Positions 20,762-33,562 of a DNA stretch of 64,000 nucleotides are shown piece after piece. The DNA lies in contig CASDPK010000003.1 of the NCBI GenBank assembly GCA_949282555.1, forward strand, positions 6,865 to 70,864, written 5' to 3'. The position numbers and the translations under genes are program-made. The notes under the pieces were generated by a model, which saw only the letters and a list, made by a program, of their open reading frames with translations, had not been told where the DNA came from and did not search any database. The DNA comes from an uncultured Lentisphaeraceae bacterium (GTDB lineage: Bacteria > Verrucomicrobiota > Kiritimatiellia > RFP12 > DVOR01). Position 1 is the first letter of the stretch, and the number at the start of each line of letters is the position of its first letter.

Positions 20762-21385
20762 TCACGCCACCTTGCGGCGAAGCGCCAGCCCAGCCACTCC
20801 CAGCGCCAGCAACGCCAACGCCGTCGGCTCGGGAACAGTAACTACGCTTCCCTTATAGGCACCCGCAGCGATGATCATATCTTCGGCAGTAATGTCTGTT
20901 TCACTGGTAATAAAATTGAGGCCATTGACTGTTGAGTCCCCTGTTTTGATTACGTTGAACCACTCTTTTCCATCGATGTAAACCGTTACGGTTACATTTT
21001 GCGAACCCTCCGTTAACTTCTCGTATGTTATTGCTACTGTATGCTTCGCTCCTGAGATTGTCGTCTCATTGGCGATGTTATCCGTGTACTGACCTTTTGT
21101 TCCTAGCGCGTAAGTACCATCTTCTGCCCCAGCCTTGACATAAAGAATGGTATTTCCGCCGGACCACTGGGCTGCCTTAAAGATTGCCGCATAGGACTCT
21201 CCCGCAGTCGAGAAGTCCAAGTTGACAATCAACGAAGTTGTTCCAATACCCGTTCCTTGCCCCTGATTTGCCCAAATCGTTTTACTTTCATCGGGGGTTT
21301 CAGGATTATACGTCCAATCATAAGTAATCGCGCTGGCCACGCCGGCCACGCAAAGGGCCGCAAGGGCCATCATCAGTTTCTTCAT
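20762..21385 (-). CDS. PEP-CTERM sorting-domain protein (secreted, unknown function)
   Basis: Signal peptide MKKLMMALAALCVAGVASA. C-terminal VPEPTALALLALGVAGLALRRKVA has the PEP motif, a TM helix and a basic tail. RBS aggag with 9-nt spacer. Confidence 0.8.
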   Translation of the reverse strand: MKKLMMALAALCVAGVASAITYDWTYNPETPDESKTIWANQGQGTGIGTTSLIVNLDFSTAGESYAAIFKAAQWSGGNTILYVKAGAEDGTYALGTKGQYTDNIANETTISGAKHTVAITYEKLTEGSQNVTVTVYIDGKEWFNVIKTGDSTVNGLNFITSETDITAEDMIIAAGAYKGSVVTVPEPTALALLALGVAGLALRRKVA

Positions 21386-21488
21386 CTCCATCATCTCCTG
21401 TTCAAGCACGTTCCGTGCGGTTGAAACTTTCAAGGCGAGGGAACGGCCCTCAAAAGAACCCAAAAGCAACGTCACAATATCATACCTG

Positions 21489-21496
21489 CCCCCCCC
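21489..21496. repeat. C8 homopolymer in the AT-rich upstream region of the PEP-CTERM gene
   Basis: The cccccccc run is adjacent to TTGAC on the gene strand. Confidence 0.9.
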
Positions 21497-21740: not shown

Positions 21741-21751
21741 GGGGGGGGGGG
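21741..21751. repeat. G11 homopolymer tract
   Basis: ggggggggggg lies immediately beyond the terminator of the giant gene. Confidence 0.9.
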
Positions 21752-32075: not shown

Positions 32076-32651
32076 TCAGCCGTTTTGGTGACGCTTGGCG
32101 GCGGCGAGGTTCTTCTCGTATTCGGACTTACAGCTGACGCAACGGATGGCGAAGGGCGCCGCCCGCAGACGATCGCGCGGGATGAGGCATCCGCACACCT
32201 GGCAGATGCCGTAAGTCTTGTTGTCGATGGCACGCAGGGCATCATCGATGGCGTGGAGGCGGGTGTGCTGTTCATCGGCACGGCTGAGATCCGCCGAGCG
32301 CGCGAAGGCGTTGGAACCATCCTCTTCCACGTTCTCCTCGTCCGCGCGGCGGAGCGCATCGGCGCGCGTGGCGCGGAGCTGGCGCAGGATGGCTTCCCGG
32401 TCGGCGAGGAGGCGTTTGCGGAAGTCCGCGAGGTCGGCGTCGCTGAAATGTTGCTCGCCATTTTTGGCGAAGCGGGGGCGCGGGCCGGAACTCTTTTTCC
32501 CAGAGGGACGCACCAAGTCGTACTTGGGGCGGATTGGCAAGGCAGATTCACCGGAAGCGGGAGTGCCTTTTTGCGGGGCAATTTCTTTGACCACCGGCGT
32601 TTGGGTGGCTTCTTGGGGGGCAACTTTCCCCAAGGGAGTTTTTTCAGTTAT
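32076..32651 (-). CDS. DksA/TraR-family C4 zinc-finger segment, in the -1 frame relative to the upstream KA-rich ORF
   Basis: C-terminal CQVCGCLIPRDRLRAAPFAIRCVSC, preceded by a coiled-coil (FRKRLLADREAILRQLR). No ATG or Shine-Dalgarno-supported start lies downstream of the A10 run. Confidence 0.55.
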   Translation of the reverse strand: MTEKTPLGKVAPQEATQTPVVKEIAPQKGTPASGESALPIRPKYDLVRPSGKKSSGPRPRFAKNGEQHFSDADLADFRKRLLADREAILRQLRATRADALRRADEENVEEDGSNAFARSADLSRADEQHTRLHAIDDALRAIDNKTYGICQVCGCLIPRDRLRAAPFAIRCVSCKSEYEKNLAAAKRHQNG

Positions 32652-33175
32652 TTTTTTTTTGAGGGCGTCTTTGCCTTGGGGGCCGCAGGCTTCTTTGCGG
32701 GGGCCTTTTTGGCGACGGCGGCTTTGACGGCCTTGGCAGGGGCCTTCTTCACAGGCGTGACCTTGGCCACGGCCTTTGCGGGCGCCTTCTTCGCTGCGGG
32801 GGCTTTGGCGACGGCGGCTTTGACGGCCTTGGCAGGGGCCTTCTTCACAGGCGTGGCCTTGGCCACGACCTTTGCGGGCGCCTTCTTCGCTGCGGGGGCT
32901 TTGGCGACCTTTGCAGGCGTCGTCTTCGCGGGCGTCTTCTTGGCGACGGCGGCCTTGACGGCCTTGACCGGAGTCTTCTTCGCAGGCGTGGCCTTGGCGG
33001 TAGCCTTGGTCGGAGCCTTCTTGGCGACAGCGGCCTTGACGGCCTTGGTGGGCGTCTTCTTCGCGGGGGTGACCTTGGTTACGGTCTTTGCGGGGGCCTT
33101 TTTGGCAGGCGTAGCCTTGGCCTTTTTCTTTGGGGCCGGTTGCTTTGCGGCCGGGGATTTTTTGGGAGTTGCCAT
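32648..33175 (-). CDS. Histone H1-like Lys/Ala-rich repeat protein (AlgP/Hc1-like), ending in an A10 tract plus TAA
   Basis: MATPKKSPAAKQPAPKKKAKATPAKKAPAK... with tandem AKKAPAK / KAVKAAVAKK repeats. The 3' end is TCA AAA AAA AAA TAA. Confidence 0.65.
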   Translation of the reverse strand: MATPKKSPAAKQPAPKKKAKATPAKKAPAKTVTKVTPAKKTPTKAVKAAVAKKAPTKATAKATPAKKTPVKAVKAAVAKKTPAKTTPAKVAKAPAAKKAPAKVVAKATPVKKAPAKAVKAAVAKAPAAKKAPAKAVAKVTPVKKAPAKAVKAAVAKKAPAKKPAAPKAKTPSKKK

Positions 33176-33562
33176 AACTGATTCCATCTCCTTGAAACTG
33201 CCAGAATACAGGGACGGAAGTGCCATCACGGCACGTATCCAAACCCTTGAGATGTCGGGTAATCTACCAAAAAGGCGCCTCAGAGGCAAGCACGCAAGTG
33301 CTCGGCCGTGATATGTCATAGTCCTGTGCACCGAAGCAAAAGAGGATGTGCATCCTATGCGTCAAATGAACGTGCGCCAAAGGATGACACATCACCCCTC
33401 CACTTCTTCCCCTTTCGGTGCACTTTCTATTTGACACATTACGATTGTAAGGGGGTGCGGACAAGAGAATGCAGGGAAAGAAGGAAGGGGGAAAGGATGA
33501 TGGCGACGTGCGGTTTTGGGCTATCATACAGGCATGGTAAGAGTGGCACGAGGGAGGACACG

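Follow-up and report, generated by a model that had tools for sequence, protein, structure and literature searches.

A probable programmed recoding cassette at a conserved run of ten adenines in a gene for a histone H1-like/DksA protein of uncultured Kiritimatiellia

The DNA analysed here, called the window, is a stretch of 64,000 nucleotides from contig CASDPK010000003.1 of an uncultured Lentisphaeraceae bacterium of the Kiritimatiellia, and the element in question is a pair of minus-strand open reading frames (ORFs) that meet at a run of ten A's (A10). All coordinates are those of the 64-kb window. The two ORFs probably represent one gene, which encodes a bifunctional histone H1-like/DksA protein of the Kiritimatiellia and is expressed via a programmed recoding cassette. 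In standard decoding, the ribosome would start at an ATG supported by a Shine-Dalgarno (SD) sequence, translate a lysine/alanine-rich (KA) domain and stop at the TAA after A10, giving a 17-kDa basic protein. On a fraction of the messages, the frame would move to -1 at A10 and 191 further codons would be read, giving a 38-kDa fusion of the KA domain with a DksA-like domain. The gene has the following features.

32076..33175, minus strand: the whole recoded gene, with a 175-aa KA protein and a 366-aa KA-DksA fusion as predicted products
33187..33193, minus strand: SD sequence AAGGAGA of the KA ORF, with a duplex free energy (dG) with the anti-SD of -8.5 kcal/mol
33175-33173, minus strand: ATG start codon of the KA ORF
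32648..33175, minus strand: zero-frame KA ORF including TAA, 175 aa (MATPKK...TPSKKK*), Lys/Ala/Pro-rich and basic in a histone-H1-like manner
32708..32908, unstranded: tandem repeat in the KA domain, 96 bp (32 aa), 2.1 copies at 98% identity
32651..32660, minus strand: A10 slippery run (T10 on the plus strand), the proposed recoding site
32650-32648, minus strand: zero-frame stop TAA
32644..32650, minus strand: TAA CTG A, which holds the zero-frame stop TAA and the +1-frame stop TGA
32590..32634, minus strand: two predicted RNA hairpins 3' of the run, at offsets +16..+38 and +41..+60
32076..32651, minus strand: -1-frame continuation (ITEKTPLGK...KRHQNG plus TGA), with a disordered linker of ~70 aa, the motif PKYDLVRPSGKK and then the DksA-fold domain
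32130..32204, minus strand: C4 zinc finger CQVC-x17-CVSC (PF01258)

The 3' end of the KA ORF was CCC TCA AAA AAA AAA TAA, with A10 at 32660-32651, as the preliminary description of this DNA had read it. One base back, the frame reads AAA AAA AAA ATA ACT GAA and continues for 191 open codons to a TGA at 32078-32076. The earlier account of about 190 open codons leading to a DksA/TraR zinc finger was borne out by a match of residues 146-180 of the 191-aa segment to PF01258 (zf-dskA_traR; E = 1.8e-11, above the gathering score). The predicted fusion has 366 aa and a computed mass of 38.4 kDa, and the earlier estimate of ~45 kDa was too high. The KA protein (17 kDa, pI 11.7) consists of 31% K, 33% A and 14% P; Pfam and NCBIfam profile searches with the KA ORF returned no family, and the ORF is homologous to the N-terminal domain of fused orthologs. 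The label "H1-like" comes from this composition and from analogy with the Streptomyces protein DdbA, and by the same analogy the KA domain presumably binds DNA. A10 was the sole A/T run of at least nine nucleotides in the 64-kb window, where ~0.01 would be expected by chance at 61% GC.

Structural analysis placed the C-terminal part of the -1-frame segment among the DksA proteins. The last ~120 residues matched PF01258 as well as the DksA and YteA models, the latter under the equivalog cut-offs of NCBIfam (63.7 vs 105 for NF033459, 49.7 vs 115.5 for TIGR02420 and 66.6 vs 134.4 for the yteA subfamily), and the zinc-finger cysteines CQVC-x17-CVSC were invariant or nearly so among the homologs. 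In the AlphaFold model, which was built from 22 sequences and had a mean predicted local distance difference test score of 80.6 (>90 over the folded part), residues 1-70 were disordered, residues 71-106 and 113-143 formed the two helices of a coiled-coil hairpin, and the zinc-finger region followed. The top Foldseek matches of this model (5vsw_M, 7khi_M, 1tjl_A, 4ijj_A and 6ptg_B, probability 1.00) included E. coli DksA bound to RNA polymerase (RNAP), P. aeruginosa DksA2 and Chlamydia trachomatis Dks as the best structural matches, and the best sequence match in the PDB was 6ptg_A of Chlamydia (7e-12), followed by E. coli DksA (1e-9). As modelled, the C-terminal part has the DksA fold, and by analogy the domain would bind RNAP. 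The DxxDxA motif was not found at the coiled-coil tip, where D71 and D74 of E. coli DksA align to N and E. The tip loop N107-V-E-E-D-G112 is acidic, and EEDG.N was invariant among the homologs. With N-V-E-E-D-G in place of DxxDxA, canonical ppGpp (guanosine tetraphosphate)-dependent DksA activity should not be assumed. The linker contains the motif P-K-Y-x-L-V-R-P-S-G-K-K (32493-32528), which is located ~25 residues ahead of the coiled coil, is present in all orthologs, split and fused, and is without a known equivalent in E. coli DksA.

The main result is the conservation of the junction. Apparent stand-alone DksA homologs (134-234 aa) were all located directly 3' of a KA-rich ORF ending in A10 plus a stop codon, with the DksA part in the -1 frame. 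These split loci (L003-L006, L007, L008, L010, L035/L076, L074, L075, L077-L079, L080 and L081), together with the window, represented 11 lineages and 37 sequences. The lineages diverged down to ~55-60% identity in the DksA domain and differed in their flanking genes, and their KA domains, of 116-206 aa in the nine lineages measured, shared little alignable sequence. The cassette NCA-AAA-AAA-AAA-TAR-YTR-A was kept in 11/11 lineages. AAA encoded all three terminal lysines in each of the nine lineages counted, yet it made up only 44/444 (9.9%) of the remaining Lys codons of these ORFs, ~90% being AAG. The tenth A was provided by the third base of TCA (Ser) in four lineages and of GCA (Ala) in seven, where A-ending codons accounted for 15% of Ser/Ala codons elsewhere. 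YTR-A produced a +1-frame TGA or TAA two codons past the run in every one of the 11 lineages, while the -1-frame codons overlapping TAR-YTR-A differed (ACT, ATT, GTT or GCT, and GAA, AAA, GAT, AAG or GAC). Since the zero frame stops at once and the +1 frame two codons later, the -1 frame alone stays open. The uniform AAA codons, the origin of the tenth A in either TCA or GCA, and the preservation of YTR-A despite the varying -1 codons point to selection at the junction that acts on nucleotides rather than on amino acids. Among these lineages, L010 (CAVDHG010000076.1) is labelled Agathobacter rectalis, carries a Kiritimatiellia-type KA-DksA gene at 61% GC, and is probably a binning contaminant.

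Long A/T runs were rare in related DNA. A homopolymer survey of ~205 kb of Kiritimatiellia DNA, with one locus per lineage plus the window, found A/T runs of at least nine only at the eleven junctions, as an in-frame A9 in L016 and as a T9 after the stop in L026. The T9 (L026:3246-3254) lies ~120 nt 3' of the stop of a fused gene and is probably part of a terminator. The A9 (L016:2368-2376, CALXMW010000008.1) lies within a fused ortholog and reads GCA AAA AAA AAC GCC GCT AAT; one additional A leads to AKKKRR* and the loss of one A to AKKTPLIKR*. Judged from the sequence, this is the reverse layout, similar to that of Thermus dnaX, in which slippage would yield a short protein with the KA domain only. 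No such A9 run was found in L013, the sister lineage of L016.

The orthologs in which both domains are already in one frame also supported a single gene. Among 83 homologs, most Kiritimatiellia proteins were single ORFs of 270-330 aa with a K/A/P/T-rich N-terminus and a DksA domain; the contiguous fusions spanned ~270-400 aa overall and began with MAT(T)KK, as did the KA ORF of the window, so that the contiguous KA-rich DksA orthologs that the preliminary description had proposed to look for do exist. In the genome and metagenome surveys, 20/26 Kiritimatiellia-type loci were contiguous fusions (two of which run off the contig) and 6/26 were split. When reconstructed, the fusions of the split lineages (366-397 aa) could be aligned with the contiguous ones over their full length. 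None of the orthologs had a clearly separate DksA gene equipped with conserved start signals of its own (ribosome-binding site and ATG), the case that the same description had named as speaking against a fusion. The H1-like and DksA domains occur together on one polypeptide in the contiguous orthologs and in one assembly with an eleven-A run (A11; protein P0093, see below); in the window they would be so only if recoding occurs. In a neighbour-joining tree of the DksA domain with nine split lineages included, eight of the nine fell into one clade with the fused L026 nested inside, and L010 was split yet placed among fused relatives. This topology implied that the cassette is old relative to these species, and it suggests one or two origins, the cassette having either been gained twice or been lost several times.

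The reading frame beyond the run resembled coding sequence from the run onwards. In every lineage, no stop interrupted the -1 frame between the run and the DksA domain, a distance of 38-115 codons where measured, and the frame remained K/A/P/T-rich for tens of codons in L008, L010, L074, L075, L077, L080 and L081. The peptide that starts at the run was similar even between distant lineages (KKKI[TV][EDK]..K.KT.TVA.KAK.AVSS..KAK), and the -1-frame peptides ITEKTPLGK and TPLGKVAPQEATQTPVVK lie ahead of any start codon. An SD sequence (AAGGAGA, or GGAGA in L074) preceded the KA ATG in 9/9 split lineages tested, with a dG of -8.5 in eight of them. The -1-frame segment of the window contained no Met codon at all, and its candidate TTG and GTG starts had no SD pairing (dG +0.4, -0.8 and -3.0), in agreement with the earlier statement that the downstream segment lacks an ATG or an SD-supported GTG or TTG.

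Two separate genes, with a KA protein and a stand-alone DksA made from a non-ATG internal start or by termination-reinitiation, and with A10 retained on other grounds, for instance for a poly-Lys C-terminus, seemed an improbable arrangement. Gene callers annotate the loci in this way with TTG, GTG or ATG starts, a TTG follows the stop by 14 nt both in the window and in L003, and an SD-like sequence precedes an internal start in a few lineages. However, no start was conserved in position or type: the candidate internal GTG, TTG and ATG codons varied in position between lineages and mostly lacked an SD. In L074, L076 and L077 the single candidate, without SD, lies 19-76 codons into the -1 frame, and its use would leave the long K/A/P-rich stretch 5' of it untranslated, though the peptide starting at the run is conserved. 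Moreover, a poly-Lys C-terminus needs neither AAA codons, nor a tenth A from the preceding codon, nor a +1-frame stop, and the orthologs are fusions. In the public protein clusters P0001-P0003, P0013-P0015, P0021, P0063 and P0084-P0097, gene calls either omitted the KA ORF or gave the DksA part an arbitrary TTG, GTG or ATG start, with products of 134-234 aa.

The length of the run was compared among independent assemblies. The genome-contig scan did not yield the species representative of the window organism; its close relatives were obtained via exact-protein look-ups, the exact DksA-frame protein being recorded from many assemblies. The sample of the window species consisted of the window and 20 further contigs from ENA, NCBI and Logan. 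A10 was found in 20/21 of these independent assemblies and A11 in one (L002); with all 11 lineages pooled, 36/37 independent sequences had A10, 1/37 had A11 and none had A9. The KA ORF of every window-species assembly was in frame and ended in TCA AAA AAA AAA TAA, two apparent exceptions being scaffolding gaps of N. Its length varied within the species (121, 132, 143, 164, 170 and 175 aa; L056-L073), owing to either a real change in repeat copy number or repeat collapse in assembly. The A11 assembly (L002:2920-2930, Logan SRR31240083; protein P0093) contained a contiguous 334-aa KA-DksA ORF that reads ...TPSKKKITEKTPLGK..., matching the predicted fusion exactly, and may reflect a strain in which the gene is truly fused, a mixed population or an error in assembly.

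This assembly is what a phase-variable locus could produce, at which slippage of DNA polymerase toggles the run between A10 (split) and A11 (fused) in populations and so switches the fusion off and on. A10 tracts are mutable, and one of the 21 window-species assemblies indeed carried A11 with the fused ORF. A switching locus should show mixed lengths, however, rather than the near-uniform A10 of all 11 lineages, and phase variation leaves the conserved +1-frame stop and the downstream hairpin unexplained; this explanation was judged to have an even smaller chance than that of two genes. An artefact or a decaying gene is effectively excluded, whether as an error in sequencing or assembling the homopolymer or as a pseudogene with a recent inactivating frameshift. 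Although homopolymers are error-prone and the one A11 assembly demonstrates that another length can be called, the equal length in 36 independent assemblies from various projects and assemblers (ENA, NCBI, Logan) ruled out the sequencing error that had been put forward as the main alternative, ten further diverged lineages also having exactly A10 plus stop, and the site was kept while the DksA domains came to differ by up to ~45%, with both halves intact, open and conserved.

Programmed recoding, as first suggested in the form of a -1 shift or transcriptional slippage giving a KA-DksA fusion, was supported by the conservation of A10 and by the contiguous orthologs. In the likelier route, RNAP would slip on the T10 template and add one A, giving an A11 messenger RNA. 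As an alternative or additional route, a ribosome with the stop codon in its A site would let tRNA-Lys on A_AAA_AAA move back by one base. Messages with A9, A12 or A13 would all terminate within two codons, which implies that only the fusion and near-identical short proteins would be made. The short protein from an A9 message would end in ...KKNN. Within recoding, the balance between the transcriptional and the translational route, or both, was close to even, with a slight lean towards RNAP slippage. Three observations favoured the polymerase: the run has ten A's rather than seven, the extra length being conserved via synonymous or non-homologous codons; both non-productive frames are closed, which matters only if messages with several run lengths are made; and the layout resembles that of the Chlorobi two-ORF dnaX genes with A10 and that of Thermus dnaX with its A9. 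On nine consecutive A/T, approximately the length of the RNA-DNA hybrid, slippage by bacterial RNAP is efficient, and at the A9 of Thermus dnaX it concerns roughly half of the product (PMC5009743). A ribosomal contribution was favoured by the zero-frame heptamer A_AAA_AAA, which is of the X_XXY_YYZ type and lies directly ahead of the stop codon, so that the next stop would be in the A site, together with the selected RNA structure downstream. By analogy with DdbA, we infer that standard decoding would supply an abundant nucleoid protein and that recoding would supply less of a form carrying the RNAP-binding module. Autoregulation, in which DksA would suppress its own slippage, was considered and found unsupported: E. 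coli DksA, unlike GreA and GreB, had no effect at lacI-A9 (PMC4666387).

The RNA around the run was examined by a folding scan with a sliding 70-nt window and dinucleotide shuffles within +/-420 nt of the run. The 70 nt directly 3' of the run had the lowest z-score locally in nine of the 11 lineages and a strongly negative one in a tenth. The values after the run were -3.1 in the window, -2.4 in L003, -2.4 in L007, -5.1 in L008, -6.4 in L010, -4.5 in L074, -3.7 in L075, -3.8 in L077, -4.3 in L080, -2.1 in L081 and -0.8 in L076; in L081, lower values occurred further downstream than at the run. The common element was a bulged hairpin of ~33-39 nt, which starts 27-30 nt 3' of the run inside the coding sequence. 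It was located in six lineages as follows.

L080:1489-1527, L081:1186-1224, L077:1321-1359, L010:909-947, L074:1378-1410, L075:1481-1513: covarying hairpin

In an almost gap-free alignment of these six lineages, with the structure derived from the same sequences on which it was tested, 93.8% of the cells could pair and compensatory double changes were present at 10/16 pairs; 0/500 shuffles reached the observed score, and controls slid along the alignment paired at 34-49%. The hairpin arms are Thr and Val codons that change together, and U-rich Ser and Val codons (GTT TCT TCT TTT or similar) then follow, forming a U-rich tail 3' of the hairpin in most lineages, such as GGUUUCUUCUUUU in L081 and GGUGGUUUCUUUUC in L008. 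Automatic alignment and folding with MAFFT and RNAalifold on nine lineages returned just a 5-bp consensus stem, and the hairpin emerged only in the six-lineage subset. Small hairpins of 3-7 bp at +3 to +16 occurred in many lineages and were not individually significant. An upstream hairpin that would stimulate polymerase slippage was rejected, since no structure recurred consistently in the 45 nt upstream of the run (z between -3.8 and +0.8, in most cases close to 0). The Rfam search found no family at the site, and its lone sub-threshold match, to DicF, lay elsewhere.

The hairpin with its U-rich tail raised the thought, which we regard as doubtful, that the cassette is a composite device in which A10 slippage sets the frame and the covarying hairpin serves as a translation-sensitive attenuator or pause. 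A ribosome that stops at TAA would let the hairpin form, and the DksA part would then not be productively transcribed, whereas a ribosome in the -1 frame would melt the hairpin and transcription would go on. If so, polymerase behaviour (nucleoside triphosphate pools, pausing) would set the proportion of nucleoid protein to nucleoid-tethered DksA, and a stringent-response factor would have its level coupled to the state of transcription. A scan with the terminator consensus, made for the window, L081, L008 and L010, found no intrinsic terminator between the ORFs on the gene strand at their junction, and with no terminator call there the attenuator idea remains speculation.

Several points weigh against the recoding of a single gene as set out here. 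The lineages are related, so that counts such as 11/11 are not independent events, and the run length does change at the DNA level, as the A11 of L002 implied. That the fusion is produced, and in what ratio to the short protein, is something we infer from the sequence. SD-like sequences are present before an internal GTG or ATG in L003 (codon 18), L075 (codon 42) and L008 (codon 86), and some free DksA could be made in these lineages by internal initiation. With regard to the ribosomal route, A_AAA_AAA is less shift-prone in E. coli than A_AAA_AAG (PMC5009743), and the covarying hairpin, ~27 nt away, is too far out for a classical stimulator of -1 programmed ribosomal frameshifting. With regard to the polymerase route, the hairpin is irrelevant to slippage at the run. 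Finally, the two hairpins of the window species (+16..+38 and +41..+60) fit the six-lineage consensus less well and differ from it in position.

Programmed slippage in bacterial cellular genes is rare outside mobile elements, dnaX and prfB. The site described here is a probable recoding site in the gene of a global transcription factor, and it appears to be under selection throughout a clade of gut Kiritimatiellia that are uncultured. Such recoding, if confirmed, would allow the production, at a fixed ratio, of a nucleoid-coating protein and a version of it that carries the RNAP-binding DksA module, and would extend the idea behind DdbA, in which chromatin is coupled to transcription, to the PVC (Planctomycetes-Verrucomicrobia-Chlamydiae) group. 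Public annotations of these metagenome-assembled genomes systematically split the gene and truncate its DksA part to 134-234 aa. Elsewhere in the window (21489-21496, 21741-21751 and 20762-21475), C8 and G11 homopolymers were found; they are intergenic rather than coding and lie between the gene of a PEP-CTERM-type protein, which ends in VPEPTALALLALGVAGLALRRKVA, and that of a 1318-aa repeat protein.

No earlier description of the site turned up in the searched library, in literature searches that combined DksA with slippage or frameshifting and Kiritimatiellae with frameshift. The mechanism class is well known, and the fused architecture has been described before in one genus, of another phylum. 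As for the DksA part, the window protein shares the coiled-coil hairpin and the C4 zinc finger with DksA and C. trachomatis Dks (1tjl, 5vsw, 6ptg), and differs from them in the added disordered linker of ~70 aa, the KA-rich N-terminal extension and a tip that is not DxxDxA. As for the whole protein, the closest known counterpart in architecture is DdbA (SCO2075) of Streptomyces, whose H1-like N-terminal domain binds and condenses DNA and whose C-terminal domain is DksA-like genetically; its orthologs have been reported only in streptomycetes (PMC3643593). The predicted fusion and the contiguous Kiritimatiellia orthologs have the same architecture, with a variable Lys/Ala-rich repeat domain followed by a C4 DksA-like domain. 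DdbA, in contrast, is a single uninterrupted ORF with both tip aspartates, where the window protein has N-V-E-E-D-G. The likeness between the Kiritimatiellia proteins and DdbA was compared by architecture and may reflect convergence.

As for the mode of expression, -1 ribosomal frameshifting on A_AAA_AAG or A_AAA_AAA is known from the OrfA/OrfAB genes of the IS3/IS1 type and from E. coli dnaX (PMC5009743, PMC4066793). As predicted here, the window gene resembles the IS3/IS1 transposases in having a DNA-binding domain alone as its short product and that domain plus an effector domain as its shifted product, and in the A-rich heptamer and the downstream RNA structure. The window gene differs from both IS3/IS1 and E. 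coli dnaX in its run of ten A's rather than seven, with the extra length conserved, and in its strongest hairpin, which is ~27 nt rather than 5-9 nt away. Programmed transcriptional realignment is known from the two-ORF dnaX genes of Chlorobi with ten A's and from Thermus thermophilus dnaX with A9 (PMC3711429, PMC5009743). In comparison with these, the window gene is found in Kiritimatiellia, encodes a transcription factor rather than a clamp-loader subunit, has a covarying hairpin ~27 nt downstream, and is known from sequence alone. It is similar to them in the coding run of nine or ten A's, in the short and long products that share an N-terminus, and in the nearby stops in the non-productive frames. 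With the Chlorobi dnaX genes in particular it shares the arrangement in which the zero frame stops directly after the run and the long product needs a shift.

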